Assembly (NCBI GenBank): GCA_965199855.1
Contig: OZ241326.1
Coordinates: forward strand, 2,688,001-2,752,000
Length of the DNA stretch: 64,000 bases
From: a bacterium
GTDB lineage: Bacteria > UBA8248
Reading direction: 5' to 3'
The position numbers and the translations under genes are program-made. The notes under the pieces were generated by a model. It made no database searches. It worked only from the letters and a program-made list of their open reading frames with translations, and had not been told where the DNA came from. Each line of letters starts with the position of its first letter. Position 1 is the first letter of the stretch. Below, in pieces: positions 8,411-62,150 of this stretch.

Positions 8411-8519
8411 CCTTCCTCTCTCCCTCGCGTCCGCCGGACGCCGCTCGCCAAAGAACGCGCGGGGCGGGCGGCCCGCTCCGGCCCTCCCCCGCTTCGCGCA
8501 TTATGAACCCGTCGCCCCG

Positions 8520-9010
8520 CGAAATCCACCCCGAAACCGACCGCGAGCCGCCCCTGCGAAACCTGAAGCCCGCGCGCCCCGGCGTCATCCGCGGCGTCAA
8601 TTCCGACAAGGCGGAGGGATTGTCCCGCCGGGGCGGAGGGATTGCGGAATCCGAGGGGGGAGTTATGGTCGTCATTGCGGCGAAGGCCGCAATCCGGGAT
8701 TTTGTTTTTTGATGAACGACAACCACGGGGGGTTGTCCTTCCCCGGGTTCCCGTCTCGCCAACGCGCGGACATTCCGTAGGGGTCGTTCGGGAACGACCC
8801 GCCGCCGCCGATGCGAACCCTTCCTGAATACGGGCGGTTCCCGAATTGTGGGGCGGGCCCGGGGAGGGGCCGCCCCTACGAAACCGTCGCCACCTGCCCG
8901 TAGGGGGCGCATATATGCGCCCCGTTTGCGGGCCGGCGACGGCGAAGGCCGGAATCCGGGGTTTTGATTGTCTTTCTTCAAAACGGGCGGTTCCCGAACC
9001 GCCCCTACGA
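8520..9010. repeat. Cluster of REP-like palindromes (GTAG- and CGTC-tagged)
   Basis: GGGCGGTTCCCGAACCGCCCCTAC, GTAGGGGGCGCATATATGCGCCCC and CGTCATTGCGGCGAAGGCCGCAATCC units. Confidence 0.8.
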
Positions 9011-9048
9011 ATTCACAAACCCCGCATCCCCCCGAAGGCGAGCCGCGC

Positions 9049-9078
9049 TTGACCCCGCGCGCCTTCCTTCCATAAGAT
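9049..9078 (+). promoter_or_regulatory. Putative sigma70 promoter upstream of the autotransporter locus
   Basis: TTGACC (9049)-18 bp-TAAGAT (9073). Confidence 0.4.
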
Positions 9079-9194
9079 TCGGCTTTCAGATCAAGCTCGA
9101 AGCCTCAACGCATCCGCGTTGCTCCGCGCGGACGGGAGAAACCGGGACTCCGCAATGGCGTTTGCGCCCACCTCGAAAACGCGGCATACTGTTG

Positions 9195-9290
9195 CCGCCT
9201 CACCGCCTCACCGCCTCACCGCCTCACCGCCTCACCGCCTCACCGCCTCACCGCCTCACCGCCTCACCGCCTCACCGCCTCACCGCCTCA
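9195..9290 (+). repeat. Perfect simple sequence repeat (CCGCCTCA)x12
   Basis: 96 bp counted directly, ending 4 nt before the autotransporter ATG. Confidence 0.97.
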
Positions 9291-9294
9291 CCTT

Positions 9295-12200
9295 ATGAGG
9301 AACGCCCGGGCGTGGGGGGGCGGACGGCCGCTGCTCGTTCTCGCGCTTTTCCTGCTCGCTCTCTGCGCGGGCGAGGCGCGGGCGGCGGCGGTGTGCAGCA
9401 ACGCGCCGGGGGTCGGCGACAGAGTCGAGTGCGAGGTCGCCAGCGGCGTCACGCAGGATATCGACATCGACCTCGCGAACTCCGCCATCTCGACGACGGC
9501 GAACGTGGGCGTCTCCGCCTACCACCAAGGCGCGGGCGCCATCGACATCGAGATTCAGGGCGGATCCATCACGACGGCGGACGACAACTCCGAAGGCGTC
9601 CGGGCGCAGCATAGCGGCTCGGGCGGCATCTCCATCTCGACGCGGAATCTCGCCGTCAAGACGGGCAGTTCGACGAAAGGCCAGCACTCACCCGGCGTCA
9701 GCGGCTTTCATTTCGGGGCATCGGGCGGCGTCTCCATCGACGTTCAGGGCGGATCCATCACGACGACGGGAAGAACCGCCGCCGGCGTCACCGGCCGTCT
9801 TCGGGGCGCCGGCGATATGGGCATCACCCTCCGGGACGCCGCCATCGAAACGACGGGCTACCAGGGCTACGGCGTCTTCGGCACCTTCGATTCCAGGCGG
9901 ACGTCCGCCGGAAATCTTTCCATCAAGGCGCGGGGCGGCTCCATCATGACGACGGGCGATCAAGCCTTGGGTCTCTGGGGCAGTCATTTCGGCTCGGGGC
10001 GGGTCGGGCTCGACGCGGCGAACGTTCGCGTTACGACGGAGGGGATGTACGCCCACGGCGTCTATGGCTACCACCCGGGCGCGGGGGGCGTATCCATCAG
10101 TCTGAACGACGCGGATATCGAAACGACGGGCGCGACCGCCTACGGCGCCTATGGCCGGAACGAAGGCGCGGGGGGAATCGACATTGAGCTGAACGGCGCG
10201 CGGATCGAGACGGCGGGCGAGCGCGCCTACGGCGCCTTGGCCTGGATCCGGAACGCCGCGAGCGAGGCGGACGTCTCTATCGGCGCGGCGGGAGGCTCCG
10301 TCAGGACGGCGGGCGAGCGAGCCGCCGGCGTCTATGCCCGGAGCGACGGCCTGGGCGGGGTCTCCGTCAATCTGAACGACGCCGCCATCACGACGACGGG
10401 CGTGGACTCCTACGGCGTCTTCGCCTGGGCGACAAACGCCGCGAGCGAGACGGACGTCACCGTCGGCGCGGCGGGCGGCTCCGTCGCCGTGGAGGGACTG
10501 GGCGCGAGGGGTCTCTACGGATACCACCGGGGTCTCGGCTCCGTCTCGATGACGACGGACGCCGCCAACGTGATCGAGGCGCCGTTCGCCGTCGGAGTGG
10601 AGGCGCGCCTGACGAACGACGCGAACGCGGCGGGCCGCCTCCTCGTCACGAACGGGGGCGCGGTGGAGGCGCGCGACGTCGGCGTTCGCGCCCGGGCGGC
10701 GCGTTCGAGCGGCTCCACCTTCGGGGAGGGGACGCGGACGGCGGACGACGCGGCGCGAACCGGGCCGATGATTCACGTCGCGTCGAGCGGGGACGTCACC
10801 GTCGGCGAAAGCGTGACGGACGCCTTCATCCGGAACAAAATCGCGGGGGAGGACGGGACGCTCTCGACGGGCGAGCGCGCCGTCCTGGACGCCGTCACGG
10901 CGGGTGATTCAGACGCGCTGGATACGGCGCTCGCCGCCCTTCCCGCCGCCTACGACGACGACTGGAAGGCGGAGGCGCGGGAGCTTCTTCGCAAGCGCGG
11001 CCATGAGCCGACCTCCGCCGCCGCGCTGGCGATCCGGGCGGCCGGGGAGATTCTGGGTCTTTCTCTCGCGGGCGTCCGCGCCCTGGCGCTTTCCCACGCG
11101 GCGATCGCCGATTACGTCCGGGGCGGCGACCGGGACCCGGCGATTCTCGCCATCGCCGAGGCGAGCCGCGCGACCCGGCAGCAGGCGGCGCTGGCGGAGC
11201 AGGAGAAGCTCTCGGCCGCCGAGCGGGCGGTTCTGGCGGCGGCGCTGACGGGCGGCGATCTGGAGGGCGCCCTCGCCGCCCTTCCCGAGAGCTACGCGGA
11301 CGCCTGGAAGAACGACGTCCGCCGGCTCGCGGCGAGCTACAACGCGGGCGACATCCGCGTGGACGTGACCGGAGGCGCGATAGCCGCGGAGGGCAACGGC
11401 GTGGAGGCGCTCTACGCCGTTCCGCACGAGAGGAACGGGGGCATAGCGGTGCGCGTGGCCGAGGGCGCGAGCGTCTCGGGCGGCGCGAACGGGCTCTATC
11501 TTTCCGGCGCGGGCGCGGGCGCGGGGAATTTCTTGGCGCAGAGCGTCTCGATTGACGGGGAGGTGAGGGGCGGCGCCGGCGCGGGCGTCTATATGAAGGG
11601 CGGCGGCAGGCTGACCATCGGCGCGACGGGCCGCGTGGGCGCGACCTCCGGCGTGGGGGTTCTGGCGGATGGTCCCGGGGATTTCCACGCGACGGTGGCG
11701 GGGAGGGTGACAGGCGATATAAGAGGCGTGGGCGCGGGCGATCATGCGGTCACGGTCTCCCCCGGCGGCGAGGTGACGGGAACGATTCATCTGGCGGCGA
11801 GTACCGTGACGGTGGACGGGACGGTCGGCGCCGTTCGTCTGGACCGCGGCGGGATGGTGACGGTGGGGCGGAGCGGCGTCATCCGGGGCGCGGGAGGGAC
11901 GGCGATCCGCGCGGGAGGCGCGGCGCTCCGCGCCGATCTGAACCCGAGCGGCCGCCGGTTCCACAGCGTGGCGGGCGGCGGCGTCATCATCCACAACGCG
12001 GGCGGGAAGACGACGCTCCTCGTCAACGGGGTGAAGCTGCACGACGCGGAGACGGGCGAGACGGGCGCGCGGGCGCGCAACGGCCCTCGCGTCGTCTCCC
12101 TGCTCCCCGGGGCGGGCGACGACGGAATCTTCACGGCGGAGGAATTCATCGAGCGGGGCCTGTACCAGGGAATATACGAGGCGCTGCCGGGGCTTCTGCA

Positions 12201-56255: not shown

Positions 56256-56606
56256 ATGCCGTTTTACCGCTGGGAGGAGATGAAGCGCAAAAACCTGGCC
56301 AAGCCCTCGGATTCGGAGGGCAGCATCATCATCGGCGAGCATGTGACCCTGAACCGCTCGGTGAGCCGGCCGGGCAAGCTGGCGCGCCCGCACACGCACG
56401 GCTGCGAGCAAATCATCAACGTCGTGGAGGGAACGGCGTGGTTCCGGGTGGGCGATGAGGAGAAAACGGTCACATCGGGCGACGTCGTGCACATCCCCGA
56501 AGGGACGGAGCACGAGTTCAGGAACGAGGGCGCCGGCGAGTTCATCTACCTCTCGTTCAAGAACAAGTCCGGGGACTGGCCGCCGCCGACCGCCACGATG
56601 GACTAG
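56256..56606 (+). CDS. Cupin domain protein
   Basis: PHTHGCEQIINVVEG and GDVVHIPEGTEHEFRN. Confidence 0.9.
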   Translation: MPFYRWEEMKRKNLAKPSDSEGSIIIGEHVTLNRSVSRPGKLARPHTHGCEQIINVVEGTAWFRVGDEEKTVTSGDVVHIPEGTEHEFRNEGAGEFIYLSFKNKSGDWPPPTATMD

Positions 56607-56639
56607 CGCCTCTCCCGCCCGAACGGAGGAGACAGACCC

Positions 56640-57284
56640 GTGTCCCGCGTCCCCATGCTCGAATCCGGCGCCGACGACCCCGCCGTGAGGAGGCTGTTCG
56701 ACCACGCCGGCGTTCTCCTGAACCGCGTCCCCAACGCCTGGCGGGTGATGGCGAACCAGCCCTTCGTCGCGAAGTTCATGCTGCCGCTCACCTCGGCGCT
56801 CCTGCGCCAGGGGCTGGGCTCGGCGCTGGACACGAGGACGAAGGAGCTCGCCATCATCCGGACCAGCCAGCTCAACGGGTGCGCCTACTGACTGGCGCAC
56901 AACGCGCCGGTTGGTCAGTCGGCGGGCATCACGGAGGAGCAGATCGAGGCCATCGGGGCGGGCGACTACGCCTCCTTCTCGGAGAAGGAGCGCGCCGTCC
57001 TCCTCTGGGCGGAGCACGTGACGCTGGGCACGGCGCGGGCGCGCGACGACGTGTTCGCCGAAGTGAAAAAGCGCTTCAGCGACGCGGAGATCGTGGAGCT
57101 CACCATGGTCATCACCTACTTCAGCATGAGAAACAAGTTCAACGACGCGCTGGCGATTCCCCTCGAGGCGCAGGAGGAAATCGACCGCAACAGGATTCGC
57201 CGGAAAAGGCCGGAAGACCTCCGGGCGTATCTGGAGGCGCTGCTCGCCGACTGGCCGGAGGAGTTCCCCGAGGCGGGGGAGTGA
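56640..57284 (+). CDS. AhpD/carboxymuconolactone decarboxylase-family protein, probable selenoprotein (CxxU)
   Basis: One frame with a single in-frame TGA (56889-56891): KELAIIRTSQLNGCAY-U-LAH...GITEEQI...FSEKERAVL...FSDAEIVELT, giving 214 aa. Confidence 0.85.
56905..56924 (+). promoter_or_regulatory. Putative bacterial SECIS hairpin
   Basis: CGCCGGTT-GGTC-AGTCGGCG: an 8-bp stem (two G-U pairs) with a G-initiated tetraloop starting 21 nt after the TGA. Confidence 0.7.
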
Positions 57285-57304
57285 GGGGGGACTGACAAGG
57301 GCGT

Positions 57305-58429
57305 CTATTCAAGGCGGGTCCATGCCGCATCGATGTTTCGGCGCCTGTTTCCAGGCATCAAAAAATCGACTTCTCCCGGTGAGGTTGATACATCGTTAAA
57401 ATGTGCAGTCTGCGTCCTCTCTCTCGGGCGATCATATCGCATAAACCGTTTTCTGTTCGGCCAAAGTTCGCGCACTAGGTGTAGCGTCGTATGTTTCGTA
57501 AATGTTCTCGCGTCCGTCCGTAGCCAAATAACGCCGTTAGGCTTGAGGCGTTTCTTCGCTTTAGAAAGCACCTCACACAACATACGGCGGTAGGAGGCTT
57601 GCCGGCTGTCTCGCGGATCTTTCTTCCAATCAGGTAAAGGTGGCCCCTCTCCAAGCATCCATAATCGTATCCAGCTGTCTTGACGGTAGTTGGTGATGCC
57701 AAAATACGGTGGAGACGTGAACAAGAGATCGAAATCCTTGCCTTTGTAACCGGAAAGAACTTTCGCCGCATCTCCTTGCAAAATCTTTGAGGCACCCCGG
57801 TCCTTGATAACACCGTGTGCATATCGCCACTGGATTCTCTTGCGGAAGTAGGTATATGGGTCGACTTCCGGTGGGCGCATTCGCCTCTTTTTCCACCATC
57901 TAACGGCGTAATCAGGGCCCATTGCCCGTGACTTCTGCATCTGATTGCTAATGCCATCGTTCAACCTGCCGTGAAGGTTGACAAGAATAAATCCCATGAG
58001 AGTCCGATCCGTTATATTTTTACGCCAGTCAAGATCGCGTCTCGCGGTATTGAGGAAGCCGAGAACACCAGGAGACCAAGCCCAATGTTGAAACTCGTTT
58101 TCTGGTTGTGTGTCACGCGGCCGTCCTTTGCCGCGCAGATCTTCTAAACGTTGCAATAGCTTCACAACATTTGATTCAGGCAGGGTCTTCACTTCGGCAA
58201 AGAGCCAAGCCACTGGATTGATATCGATCCCAAGAGCAGAACGCCCGGACGTTTGAGCGACGAAAGGTGCCGTTCCACGTCCGCAAAATGGATCCAGGAT
58301 GTGGCCGCCTTTCGGAGTCATCGTGTCTATAACTTGCTGGGCAAATTGAACCGGGAACATAGCATAGTATGGGCCAAAGCCAGACCAGCGACCGGATGCA
58401 CTACCATATTTTCCTATTGGCAGGCTCAT
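57305..58429 (-). CDS. DNA methyltransferase, probable N4-cytosine (SAM motif before the SPPY catalytic motif)
   Basis: GPYYAMFP, ILDPFCGRGT, GIDINP and DLLFTSPPY. Confidence 0.88.
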   Translation of the reverse strand: MSLPIGKYGSASGRWSGFGPYYAMFPVQFAQQVIDTMTPKGGHILDPFCGRGTAPFVAQTSGRSALGIDINPVAWLFAEVKTLPESNVVKLLQRLEDLRGKGRPRDTQPENEFQHWAWSPGVLGFLNTARRDLDWRKNITDRTLMGFILVNLHGRLNDGISNQMQKSRAMGPDYAVRWWKKRRMRPPEVDPYTYFRKRIQWRYAHGVIKDRGASKILQGDAAKVLSGYKGKDFDLLFTSPPYFGITNYRQDSWIRLWMLGEGPPLPDWKKDPRDSRQASYRRMLCEVLSKAKKRLKPNGVIWLRTDARTFTKHTTLHLVRELWPNRKRFMRYDRPRERTQTAHFNDVSTSPGEVDFLMPGNRRRNIDAAWTRLE

Positions 58430-59748
58430 GGATCCTCCAGCAAACTCCGAATAATGTCTGTCCCCCGCTTTAGTGGAATTGCGGCATGCGCATGAGCGCG
58501 TATCAGAGGCAAGAATCCGCCATCATAGATGTAAGTTGCCAAGTGGTCCATGACATCTAGAATATCTCCTAGTCTAGGAAAGCATCCAGGAGAATTATTC
58601 CTGAAATTTTCCGCGAGTTGGTCCAGCATAGCAGTATGAATGACTACATGCTGTCCTTTGTTGGTTTTGTAAAGAATGATACGGCCAAAGTGAGTGTCTT
58701 CGCCAAAGCATTTTCCCTTTTTATCAGAGGGGACAACGTTGCTACTGATATATTCAGCATCCAGTGGGATTGTAGTCTGTTCTGGAAAACGCGAGCCCGG
58801 CCCCATTTGATCCTGCCAATCGATCTCCTCCCAATGCTCCTTAAAACGGCCCGTTTTTTCTATTCCGAATACGACTATGTCGGTTCCATTGGCTTGGCGT
58901 GCTTTATGGTTTAATCGTCTCAGCTCTTCACGGATTGGGCGCAATATGGAAGCTGGAGTTCCAAAAACAGCTAGAGGACCATCTAGCACAAAAGCACACG
59001 TATCAAGGTAAGCCGGATGTTTTTCGACAAAGAAACGCAGGATATTTAATAGTATCAAGATTTCAAGCACGGAGCGTAGTCGGCCCAACGCCTCGCCCCC
59101 CGTGCGAATCCCATCGAAGTATTCATGCAGACGCAACAGGTCAGTTTCAAACATCTTTTCGCGTCTCTCGCAATGACACAGATATTCTCCGGTGTTGCGC
59201 TCATATTTTTCTTCGCAATCTACCGCGGGGCAAGGAATCCGGGATTCGAGATCGACACAAATTGTCCGCATGGTTTCCAGCAATGTCTCATGGTCGTCCG
59301 CGATGACGTTTGACAAGGTGTCATAAGTTTTTTGCCGGAAGAAATTTATCGGCGCATCATGGTCAACATCCTTGCGAACAACTCCTATGCCCGGCATTGC
59401 GGCTTCCAGAGTATGAGCTTTTTCGATCTCACGAAAAAATGATGGGCGAGGAATAACATTCGTACTTAAGCTATTTAGTTGATCCAGTTTGATAGCTACC
59501 ACCGATATCATCAACAAACCTGCTTCCGCACCCGGGAATCCACCGTTGACGCGGTGCATAAGATGGGAACCATCAATGGCAATGACTCGTCTTGGACACC
59601 AGCCGCGCCGCCGCGTTTGAAAAATCGGTGGTTTTACAGGCTTATCTCTGTCCCTCGCAAGGATGGTTCCTTCAAATTCTTTCAGTGCTTGGCTGTTTTC
59701 CAGCCATATCAAGCTGTCCCCGCTAGCTTTTTCGTTCTTATGGGGCAT
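58426..59748 (-). CDS. NurA-family (RNase H-fold) nuclease
   Basis: VIAIDGS, LEIL, FVLDGPL, GIEKTG and C-terminal PLIRAHAHAAI. Confidence 0.8.
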   Translation of the reverse strand: MPHKNEKASGDSLIWLENSQALKEFEGTILARDRDKPVKPPIFQTRRRGWCPRRVIAIDGSHLMHRVNGGFPGAEAGLLMISVVAIKLDQLNSLSTNVIPRPSFFREIEKAHTLEAAMPGIGVVRKDVDHDAPINFFRQKTYDTLSNVIADDHETLLETMRTICVDLESRIPCPAVDCEEKYERNTGEYLCHCERREKMFETDLLRLHEYFDGIRTGGEALGRLRSVLEILILLNILRFFVEKHPAYLDTCAFVLDGPLAVFGTPASILRPIREELRRLNHKARQANGTDIVVFGIEKTGRFKEHWEEIDWQDQMGPGSRFPEQTTIPLDAEYISSNVVPSDKKGKCFGEDTHFGRIILYKTNKGQHVVIHTAMLDQLAENFRNNSPGCFPRLGDILDVMDHLATYIYDGGFLPLIRAHAHAAIPLKRGTDIIRSLLEDP

Positions 59749-61914
59749 CTAGGTACTCTCTTTCTCGTCTGTTATAGGATTTGCCGTGAATTTATTGATC
59801 TGCACTGGCACTATATATGGGTTGGATAAACAACGCATCCGCAAAAAGCCGGTATCCGGCACCCTCAGAATTTGATCAACGAACATCTCAAAGTCGTAGT
59901 ATTTCCTCAACTCCCGTGTTTCGTCCCGGTTGTTCAAGTGCGCCACAAACCAGTTGTCGGTGTTCTTCAAGATGTTCGCCAAAATAGAGCTTGGCTCTTG
60001 GGTGGAATACATCAAACCAATGCGGAACTTAGAGCCTTCTTTGGCTGTCCGCGCCCATATTGAGTCTAATTCAGCATTTTGAGAGGGAAGCAAATTGTGG
60101 GCTTCCTCAACATACACAATTACATCCGGCGGCGGCGTGATGTTGCCGTTATCATCTCGGAGAAGCTCTCCGTCCGCGCCGCGCGGCGGATTTGTGAAGA
60201 CTTCCCTCTGACGGCCGAAAAGCTCCCACATGATGCGTTCAGATGTGTGCTTAATTTCAGCCGGTGCACCAATCGACTGGTCAACAATGACCAAGTTACC
60301 ACGAACAAGCTCATCAACAATTTCCGTGGAATAGTCGGCCCCGACGGCCGGACTGTGCCGCTCTTGCAACTCCCGTATTCTGCCGACCCCTCCTGCCCAA
60401 CTCAAAAGAGAAAGCAATCCGTTCAAAGTGTCGTCATTCCACGGCTTGCCCCTTTTGGCTTGATACTTCTTGTTAAATTCCTGAAATGCACTATTACCCG
60501 TCCCTTGTCGGCCTCCTATAACGAACTCTTGAAAAGCCGTTAGCGCTTGATGTAATTCGTTCCATGAAACGCTTGCCTTCTCGAAAGTATGGGCGACCCC
60601 TTGATATTTGGCTTCATTGGTAGATTGCAGGGCTTTTATTAACTCGTTACTAAAAAGCCCTTTGATACTGGCTTCTCGCAGGTTGGGCGGCGCACTAAAA
60701 TTGGCCGCGGCGAGTATGGCTCTATACAATGTGATGTTGCGCCGAAAGCGAGTTTGAGTCCCTCTGTCCCAATCATCGGCAAGGGCTTCTATATTGGTAT
60801 TGATGAATCTGCTAACGTATTGGGCGTCAGACCGGACCCGAAGATGCTCGTCAATTATTCCTTTCCCGGCGAAGAGCATGACCAGAGCGGAGCGGACAGC
60901 TTCCTTATCGCTCCAGTCTCCGATGCCTTCACCAAAGAAGTTCAGCTTGATCAAACGCCGGCCTGAATCGTTAGGGTGCTCAAAGAGTCCGTAGGTCACA
61001 ACATCATCCAAGCCAATGTTGCGCAGACACCCGGCATCCTGCGGATTGTCGTTAGCGTATTCTCCGTTCACATCGAAAATCAGTTGGCCGATGCGCCCTT
61101 TGTTCGGATCAATCTTTCGCAGATCGAATATGGCGGATGAAAGAGTTTTAATGGTGTTTGATTTACCGCTACGGCTCATCCCGAAAAGCGCGGTGCGCCG
61201 AGCCAACATATCTGTTGGTTCAATATGGACGGAGACGTTTTCGCGATTTTCGTCAACTGCAATTTCACTGGAGGAATAGCGAACTCGCCCAACTGGGACA
61301 GGATGTCCAGCGAGCGGATGCAAGACGCCCATAGGCTTGGTGAAGTTAACTATGTTGTATAACGCAGTGTCTATCGGTTTGTATACCTTCATCCCCTGCC
61401 CGGAATAAAAATTGGAGATGTCAGCACCAAAGGTAGGCTCCCATTTATCGCTATTTTTATCATGGGCATATCGAAAAGTTCCCAGCACGCTACAACGCAC
61501 TCCCGCATGCCGTAGTTGATTCAACGTGAATTGATCGGTGTTGCTGTCTGCATCCCACTGCTTAGAAGAATCAATGGAGCGACGCGCCGCATCAAAACGC
61601 CATTGGTCTGTATCCGTTCGATTGGGTAAAGATGAATGTCCTAAGACGCGAAGCAAGATGAGTGCAGTGTCTTCCTGATCTGATCGGGGTTTGGTGTCCG
61701 GCTCTACCCTCGTAGCAAGCAAGAAGCACCCCATTGGCAATCCGCCTACCTCTTGCCTCTGTGCATCATGGACTAGAACGGTCGCCTCTGTATAATCAAG
61801 CGACAATAAGTCGCCAACCCTTTCATCTTCTTTGATCCATGCCGCTAATTTACCGCCGTATTCTTCGGCCCTAGCTCTCTCAAAGTCTCTTCCCTCTTGA
61901 TCAATCAATGCCAT
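59749..61914 (-). CDS. HerA/FtsK-superfamily ATPase (DUF87-type)
   Basis: N-terminal barrel-like region; TALFGMSRSGKSNT (Walker A), IFDVNGEY, YVEEAHNLLP (Walker B) and AKEGSKF..GLMYSTQEPS. Confidence 0.88.
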   Translation of the reverse strand: MALIDQEGRDFERARAEEYGGKLAAWIKEDERVGDLLSLDYTEATVLVHDAQRQEVGGLPMGCFLLATRVEPDTKPRSDQEDTALILLRVLGHSSLPNRTDTDQWRFDAARRSIDSSKQWDADSNTDQFTLNQLRHAGVRCSVLGTFRYAHDKNSDKWEPTFGADISNFYSGQGMKVYKPIDTALYNIVNFTKPMGVLHPLAGHPVPVGRVRYSSSEIAVDENRENVSVHIEPTDMLARRTALFGMSRSGKSNTIKTLSSAIFDLRKIDPNKGRIGQLIFDVNGEYANDNPQDAGCLRNIGLDDVVTYGLFEHPNDSGRRLIKLNFFGEGIGDWSDKEAVRSALVMLFAGKGIIDEHLRVRSDAQYVSRFINTNIEALADDWDRGTQTRFRRNITLYRAILAAANFSAPPNLREASIKGLFSNELIKALQSTNEAKYQGVAHTFEKASVSWNELHQALTAFQEFVIGGRQGTGNSAFQEFNKKYQAKRGKPWNDDTLNGLLSLLSWAGGVGRIRELQERHSPAVGADYSTEIVDELVRGNLVIVDQSIGAPAEIKHTSERIMWELFGRQREVFTNPPRGADGELLRDDNGNITPPPDVIVYVEEAHNLLPSQNAELDSIWARTAKEGSKFRIGLMYSTQEPSSILANILKNTDNWFVAHLNNRDETRELRKYYDFEMFVDQILRVPDTGFLRMRCLSNPYIVPVQINKFTANPITDEKEST

Positions 61915-61986
61915 TCTTCACCTCAGAATAGAAATAACGATTTTTTCCAACACACAAAGAATAATTGCTTAATTCGCCTCCCCCCC

Positions 61987-62104
61987 TCAATACCCATCGT
62001 CGGCGTAATTCCCCGGTGTGGGCGTGGCGCCGGTGGCCATGGCAGCCGAGCGTCCTGACGTTGTGCTCATCCGACATGATGACGAGCAGGTTCATCGGCT
62101 CCAT
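61987..62104 (-). pseudogene. Sulfatase remnant (N-terminal ~24 codons only)
   Basis: SD GGGAGAG + MEPMNLLVIMSDEHNVRTLGCHGH matches a sulfatase N-terminus (N.L.IMSDEH...LGC.GH), and the similarity stops there. Confidence 0.7.
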
Positions 62105-62150
62105 ATCGAAGGCTCTCCCATCGGAGGGCGCCCCCGGGGCGCGCGGCGCG

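Follow-up and report, generated by a model that had tools for sequence, protein, structure and literature searches.

We describe here a three-gene cassette, coding for a HerA-type ATPase, a NurA-type nuclease and a DNA methyltransferase, in a bacterial genome (GTDB lineage Bacteria; UBA8248; GenBank assembly GCA_965199855.1, contig OZ241326.1, positions 2,688,001 to 2,752,000 of the forward strand; this whole stretch of 64,000 nucleotides is hereafter called the window). With moderate confidence, we interpret the cassette as a horizontally acquired, mobile and self-contained restriction-modification-like system. It looks like the methylation counterpart of the sulfur-based TdpABC system, which is cited as a phosphorothioate-based restriction-modification (R-M) system (An et al., Nat Chem Biol 2025). 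The features of the locus, in window coordinates, are the following (aa, amino acids; ORF, open reading frame):

59749..61914, minus strand: HerA/TdpA-like ring ATPase, 721 aa, ATG start (ORF call)
58426..59748, minus strand: NurA/TdpB-like RNase-H-fold nuclease, 440 aa, ATG start (ORF call)
57305..58429, minus strand: DNA methyltransferase of family PF01555, 374 aa, ATG start (ORF call)
57293..61985, no strand assigned: whole insert, 4693 bp, delimited by the points at which homology with the closest same-genus genome is lost and regained
61915..61985, minus strand: AT-rich leader 5' of HerA; GAGG, a few bases upstream of the ATG, is its ribosome-binding site

An earlier reading of the window from its letters alone (the sequence-only reading) had reported three co-oriented, tightly coupled and AT-rich genes with recognizable catalytic motifs, and all of this was confirmed. 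The coordinates and both junctions on the minus strand are exact: the TAG stop codon of HerA directly abuts the NurA ATG, and the TGA stop of NurA shares the tetranucleotide ATGA with the start codon of the methyltransferase. The GC content is 0.46-0.55 per 1-kb window within the trio and 0.63-0.73 on both flanks, and the mean is 0.494 for the trio versus 0.678 for the remainder of the 64-kb window. The claimed motifs, namely, the Walker A and B motifs of HerA, DGS and DGPL of NurA, and DPFCGRGT followed by SPPY in the methyltransferase, are all present in the translations.

In the 721-aa protein, Walker A (GMSRSGKS) lies at residues 245-252 and Walker B (VYVEEAH) at residues 600-606, and the residues of both motifs are invariant across 19 HerA sequences. 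The assignment to HerA is borne out by a match to the HerA central domain PF01935 (E 1.5e-8). The HerA models of PADLOC and NCBIfam matched only in part, at best with 60 bits, and the HerA_antiphage model reached 54 bits against a cut-off of 800. The protein consists of an N-terminal helix, a beta-barrel, a RecA-type core and an all-helical insertion of about 200 residues (approximately 337-537). Among solved chains, the top sequence match is TdpA (8wet, E 9.3e-17, residues 598-707 only). The best fold match of the predicted model (predicted local distance difference test, pLDDT, 81.7) is likewise TdpA, with Z scores of 29.1 and 28.9 for 518-531 aligned residues at 21-22% identity; the alignment with Z 29.1 covers 518 of 574 residues at 22% identity. 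Sulfolobus HerA follows with Z 27.2 and 354 residues aligned, and the HerA proteins of defence systems with Z 25-26; the HerAs other than TdpA align across 345-455 residues. In the model, the aligned length with TdpA suggests that the helical insertion is common to the window HerA and TdpA. A second, weak HerA-like match is present in the same genome outside the window (G000:C1:291771-292124); it lies in a 713-aa frame and shows 31% identity across residues 594-709.

The NurA assignment fared differently from that of HerA: no family model matches the 440-aa middle protein in Pfam (including PF09376, E up to 0.1), PADLOC or NCBIfam, and the identification comes from its relatives and its predicted fold. 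Homologues number 964 at E up to 0.001, and PF09376 or the name NurA (from NCBI) is attached to some of them; the model built on 13 homologues (pLDDT 77.9; predicted template modelling score, pTM, 0.80) has the NurA fold. The best match of this model is TdpB, chain G of the TdpAB complex 8wfd (Foldseek E 1.1e-6), with Z 18.2 and a root-mean-square deviation of 4.5 over 301 of 358 aligned residues; TM1739 comes next at Z 11.3, canonical NurAs range over Z 8-11, and a Z of about 7 is reached by Endonuclease V and Argonaute PIWI domains. The translation contains IAIDGS at residues 56-61 and LDGPL at 255-259. D59, E154, D256 and H419 are invariant among 13 aligned NurA sequences, and so are C173 and C178 of a cysteine cluster at positions 173/178/191/193, the 191/193 pair missing one or both cysteines in 2 of the 13. 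The NurA profile found 724 representatives (E up to 0.001) among 1.84 billion clusters, which indicates a real family that is not large.

The methyltransferase contains DPFCGRGT at residues 46-53 and SPPY at 239-242, and within these, DPFxGR (46-51) and TSPPY (238-242) are invariant in 19 methylase sequences. PF01555 matches the protein in two stretches (E 1.2e-16), with residues 19-72 corresponding to profile positions 160-213, and the motif order is permuted, with the S-adenosylmethionine (AdoMet) motif DPFCGRGT preceding SPPY by about 190 residues. The PF01555 match and the intact motifs bear out the predicted DNA-methyltransferase identity; in addition, some Type II methyltransferase models match across the whole length, and the solved relatives include cytosine-N4 methyltransferases (E 1.4e-4). 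From the SPPY motif, we take the target to be, probably, N4-cytosine. That the catalytic motifs are intact in all three families was counted in favour of the R-M-like reading.

The three genes travel together. A NurA-profile scan of one genome per species yielded 46 loci that, according to the record titles, span Latescibacterota, Thermodesulfobacteriota, Chloroflexota, Nitrospirota, Proteobacteria, Acidobacteriota, Planctomycetota, Bacteroidota, Firmicutes, Spirochaetota and Deinococcota. In 34 of the 46, HerA lies upstream and the same methylase family downstream of NurA, in the order of the window (tblastn); a 35th locus of this clade (L005) has lost HerA, and in the other 11, with 24-29% NurA identity, HerA is present and the PF01555 methylase has no homologue (tblastn). 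Clustering of the ORFs from the 35 clade loci revealed no fourth conserved gene, the next cluster being represented in 3 loci. The identities to the three window proteins co-vary (Spearman 0.92, 0.84 and 0.88 in 26 loci, with nine partial-match loci, L005, L012, L014, L016, L019, L024, L025, L031 and L035, left out). In an independent sample of 301 Deinococcota genomes, 14 had a NurA-profile match, and full-length methylase-profile matches (E at most 1e-130) were detected in 7, which are exactly the 7 genomes with a strong NurA match, the methylase lying directly downstream in each. In the same 301 genomes, there was a single partial methylase match, near a contig start, and 121 genomes matched the generic AdoMet-motif region only. 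The neighbourhood survey and co-occurrence check that the sequence-only reading had proposed thus came out in its favour, with 34 of 46 loci in the same order and all 7 strong Deinococcota genomes carrying the methylase.

The 11 distant loci contribute the strongest argument for a functional tie. In 10 of them, a non-homologous methylase of the D12/Dam class (PF02086) adjoins HerA-NurA (18 ORFs scanned), in 6 cases upstream on the same strand, in 2 downstream and in 2 on the opposite strand. Because distant relatives swap in a non-homologous methylase, the methylase appears to be functionally tied to HerA-NurA. Among five weaker Deinococcota loci, three carry D12, one has a PF01555 methylase of standard motif order, and one (L087) has a DUF4357 protein.

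We also followed gene decay across the 35 clade loci, with intactness of a gene defined as alignment of at least 85% of the query in one stop-free frame. By this count, 24 loci are fully intact; HerA alone is broken in 6 (one of them at a contig edge), HerA and the methylase in 2, HerA and NurA in 1, and all three genes are damaged in 1. The methylase of L015, aligned over 83% within a frame of normal length, fell just below the threshold, which we regard as an artefact. The methylase is never clearly broken alone, and that it is never clearly the first gene to be lost is what one would predict for a nuclease that spares the host only when the mark is present.

Two loci show unusual arrangements. 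In an alphaproteobacterial metagenome-assembled genome (MAG), NurA and the methylase share one 787-aa frame (L014:6992-9361), and HerA is split at the same locus; this (P0124 = L014) is the single NurA-methylase fusion among 5416 candidates searched for longer fused forms, too rare to argue for a physical complex. In a gammaproteobacterial MAG (L016), a 312-aa ORF (8411-9346) separates NurA from the methylase, and HerA is in two pieces.

The foreign origin proposed from the low GC content is corroborated by comparative genomics. The insert is missing from all 22 other same-genus genomes searched, and NurA is present in only 2 of 61 genomes (its own, G000, and 60 relatives), namely, G000 and one same-genus genome at 27% identity; vertical inheritance in all relatives is accordingly not what we see. 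The nearest homologues (77-82% identity) sit in other phyla. Low GC is a property of the cassette elsewhere, too: after exclusion of seven broken or edge loci, the trio lies below its flanks in 26 of 28 loci (median difference -0.087). In the closest same-genus genome (G001, 88-90% nucleotide identity), homology extends over 56626-57292 and is back at 61986, which gives an insert of 4693 bp replacing approximately 970 bp. Neither an integrase, nor a flanking direct repeat, nor an adjacent tRNA was found at the insert site, and the sole tRNA is about 9.4 kb off.

Relatives of the cassette are carried by mobile elements. Distant relatives reside on five plasmids and in two records of Vibrio temperate phages. 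In one of these phages (L067, PQ189353.1, 1309-5751), HerA (as two coding sequences), a NurA-like gene and a convergent D12 methylase are placed between the integrase and the excisionase (the context was examined in one of the two phage records), and the notes of this record label only the methylase as R-M. A haloarchaeal plasmid encodes a DUF87 protein, a NurA-like protein and a permuted PF01555 methylase, arranged as in the window. A search of sequencing runs identified 7 holders in 3 studies, with no RNA holder among the matches listed.

The insert of the window is flanked by transporter and hydrolase genes, and the interval from the TRAP transporter to the MBL hydrolase is variable throughout the genus. 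Promoter-like and terminator-like matches did not rise above shuffled controls (6 vs 4.1 and 7 vs 6.0, respectively), and no promoter was identified at the leader. Beside the insert, 61986-62110 on the minus strand is a sulfatase remnant that keeps about 60 nucleotides (nt) of the start and 45 nt of the end of the gene, with a 1.35-kb internal deletion; relatives have a PF00884 sulfatase of 484-485 aa there. On the other side, at 56606-56626, the closest same-genus genome holds about 2.5 kb of extra sequence with two GFO/IDH/MocA oxidoreductases. A 36-nt imperfect inverted repeat (57255-57290 and 61981-62016; 72% complementary) lies exactly at the two ends of the insert; a role as its terminal repeats was considered and rejected because both arms are conserved in the closest relative, the right arm being the 3' end of the sulfatase gene. 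It is probably a chance occurrence or a property of the target site.

The mechanism that we propose follows the TdpABC analogy. The methyltransferase, probably an N4-cytosine enzyme, would mark the host's own DNA, and the HerA-type hexameric ATPase and the NurA-type nuclease would build a TdpAB-like translocase-nuclease complex, as the solved HerA-NurA and TdpAB complexes lead us to infer. This complex would load on unmarked DNA, pump it at the expense of ATP and degrade it. In TdpABC, sulfur in the backbone reportedly blocks TdpAB translocation on self DNA, and the cassette probably works in a similar manner, with methylation protecting self DNA and the complex presumably acting against phages or plasmids. 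The mark might be read by the approximately 200-residue helical insertion of HerA, by the Cys-cluster insertion of NurA, or by the methylase recruited as a specificity subunit. Of the self/non-self restriction scheme put forward in the sequence-only reading, the conserved, co-inherited and mobile unit, the tied methylase, and a motor and nuclease closest to TdpAB stand, and a defence phenotype, methylation-sensitive degradation and m4C specificity are predictions of the scheme. That interpretation is the best available, and it gains strength from the replaced methylase, the co-occurrence in the independent sample and the resemblance to TdpAB.

Several observations weigh against it. We found no experimental study of any member of the cassette in the literature, and a ring translocase that grips the DNA backbone would have no obvious way to read a methyl group on a base. 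The resemblance to TdpAB is a distant one: the window proteins share only 11-22% sequence identity with TdpA and TdpB, the lead of TdpA over Sulfolobus HerA in Z is small (29.1 vs 27.2), and the NurA profile retrieved nothing better than E 0.16 from the sequences of solved chains. The sole studied operon with the same domains, that of the Thermus element ICETh1, is reported to serve DNA donation, with minor effects of the methylase. The methylase is not universal either. The distant locus L037 is without one among the ORFs tested and has an adjoining transposase, and the methylase place is taken by AbiTii on a Nostoc plasmid (L068, 2931-7433) and by the DUF4357 protein in L087 (6024-10550); these three relatives without an adjacent methylase imply that the HerA-NurA pair can work in other contexts. 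The decay pattern is weak evidence, since HerA exceeds the other two genes in length and many of the loci were taken from metagenome assemblies, and HerA-first decay could stem from gene length and from frameshift errors in such assemblies. Finally, the defence-island enrichment anticipated in the sequence-only reading is weakly apparent: most loci stand alone amid mostly unrelated housekeeping genes, and only about 9 of 33 loci have a defence or mobile-element gene no more than two ORFs away (122 ORFs scanned; L019 and L031 left out). Those neighbours comprise ApeA with DUF4276, NotI, AAA_21, a serine recombinase with SIR2_2, RhuM, HNH, Uma2, a transposase and a large PF01555 protein.

These points feed three other explanations. 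The cassette could serve defence with a methylase that is no self-marker: HerA-NurA would attack free DNA ends or be triggered by infection, as in SIR2-HerA or DUF4297-HerA, and the methylase would, for example, guard the carrier from host restriction or regulate epigenetically. Canonical HerA-NurA does act on DNA ends, the HerA partners in known defence systems act without a methylase, some relatives of the cassette have none, and no methylation reader is evident. We nevertheless consider this explanation unlikely, as the methylase is kept in 34 of the 35 clade loci and is never clearly lost alone, and another methylase class is present in 10 of the 11 distant loci; such retention and swapping would be difficult to account for if methylation were not an integral part of the system.

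The parallel with ICETh1 raises the question of whether the cassette is instead a DNA-export or transfer module that, akin to the Thermus secretion apparatus, pushes donor DNA out for uptake by neighbours. The three domain types are shared with the ICETh1 operon, and its NurA-like protein and TdtA are reported to be genetically required for transjugation. Against this, the operon is described in the order NurA-TdtA-methylase, the window site lacks a type IIG enzyme, an integrase, att repeats and a tRNA, and TdtA is described as membrane-located, whereas the three window proteins have no hydrophobic segment (the highest 19-residue Kyte-Doolittle means are 0.89-1.58, with no membrane-like segment). 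We rate export as quite improbable. An ordinary HerA-NurA pair for double-strand-break resection, adjacent to a methylase by accident, would fit the presence of both folds and the name 'DNA double-strand break repair nuclease NurA' that NCBI gives to several relatives. This we hold to be very improbable, for the genes are not vertically inherited but scattered over phyla at low GC, no Mre11/Rad50 neighbour is present, the methylase linkage is systematic rather than accidental, and in structure the nuclease is much closer to TdpB than to canonical NurAs.

If the restriction reading of the cassette is true, HerA-NurA, known mainly from archaeal DNA repair, doubles as the killing arm of a modification-dependent immune family, which would have members in many bacterial phyla, in temperate phages and on at least one archaeal plasmid. 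It would extend the sole described example, the sulfur-based TdpABC, to ordinary base methylation, and would raise the question of how a backbone-gripping ring motor tells methylated from unmethylated DNA. More broadly, we give about even chances to the view that HerA-NurA-methylase cassettes form a distinct, widespread R-M class of bacteria, archaea and mobile elements. In such a class, a ring translocase and an RNase-H-fold nuclease would destroy unmethylated DNA processively, the marking enzyme would be exchangeable (permuted or standard PF01555, Dam-class or phosphorothioation), and TdpABC would be one branch of a modification-agnostic family. Cassettes of this type are easily overlooked by current models: PADLOC 2.0 and NCBIfam missed the nuclease altogether and matched the motor only partially or below threshold, and the PADLOC check suggested in the sequence-only reading accordingly flagged no known system, with weak partial matches only. 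Since the defence-finding model sets do not flag the cassette, such cassettes are probably counted as orphan methylases, as in the Vibrio phage record.

A literature search yielded no published name for the HerA-NurA-methylase trio. The reports PMC3417536, PMC10853773, PMC7251087, PMC11514479 and PMC12839542 deal, in their accessible parts, with other HerA systems, and the comparative-genomics papers on HerA/FtsK 'capture' systems and relatives of BREX describe, to the extent of the text at hand, other architectures. The view that the trio is not a named system agrees with this search, and the trio belongs to none of TdpABC, the methylation-associated defence system (MADS) or SIR2/DUF4297-HerA. 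With SIR2-HerA and DUF4297-HerA, it shares a HerA-family motor that partners an effector in mobile defence loci (fold Z 25-26); those systems, however, employ an NADase or a DUF4297 nuclease as effector and have no methylase, and a family-model search detected no SIR2 or DUF4297 effector among the two neighbours of the window HerA. MADS is a set of eight genes, mad1-mad8, whereas the window cassette has three, with weak partial matches only to mad8 (41 bits) and mad2 (31 bits).

Types I and III R-M systems are similar in combining a methylase with an ATP-driven nuclease in a mobile unit in which the methylase class can be swapped. A methyltransferase with intact motifs is present in the trio as in classical R-M (Types I-III), but the window motor is a ring ATPase of the HerA/FtsK clade and not a superfamily 2 (SF2) helicase, the nuclease has an RNase-H-like and not a PD-(D/E)xK fold, and neither family models nor folds pointed to a known restriction endonuclease or an SF2-helicase restriction subunit in the trio. 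The canonical HerA-NurA of archaea and Deinococcus (2ygk, 4d2i, 7f6d, 9x1l-n) shares both folds with the window pair and presumably also a hexamer-dimer architecture. It differs in having a core repair function linked to Mre11/Rad50 without a methylase; the window pair shows neither core-genome inheritance nor Mre11/Rad50 linkage, and the canonical NurAs match its nuclease model (Z 8-11) far below TdpB (Z 18.2).

The Thermus ICETh1 operon, compared by its published description, has the domain content of the cassette: a NurA-like protein (TTC1878), TdtA of the HerA/FtsK family and a PF01555 methylase (TTC1880) are described as co-transcribed from one operon on a mobile element. The NurA-like protein, TdtA and the type IIG enzyme (TthHB27I/Tth111II) are reported as needed for DNA donation, or transjugation. 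As described, it differs from the window in gene order, which is NurA-TdtA-methylase there and HerA-NurA-methylase here, and in having a type IIG enzyme, an integrase and att repeats, none of which is in or beside the window insert.

TdpABC is the nearest counterpart in structure. TdpA and TdpB (cryogenic electron microscopy structures 8wet and 8wfd) are the best structural matches of the window HerA and NurA, and, judged by gene names, both systems have the order motor, nuclease, DNA-modifying enzyme. In the literature on TdpABC, tdpC is given as the sole modification gene. The third gene of the window encodes a PF01555 base methyltransferase (D12 in distant relatives) instead of the sulfur-inserting TdpC; furthermore, the window NurA is about 80 residues longer, with the Cys-cluster insertion, and hosts of window-type cassettes are not limited to thermophiles, whereas TdpABC comes from extreme thermophiles. 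The insert, which holds three genes only, thus contains TdpA-like and TdpB-like parts and no TdpC, and does not belong to TdpABC because its third gene is a methylase. The novelty claimed in the sequence-only reading needs to be moderated, as a HerA-like/NurA-like restriction module under DNA modification is already known from TdpABC as it is cited. Because of this precedent, the cassette is a variant of the TdpABC-like kind rather than a new kind.

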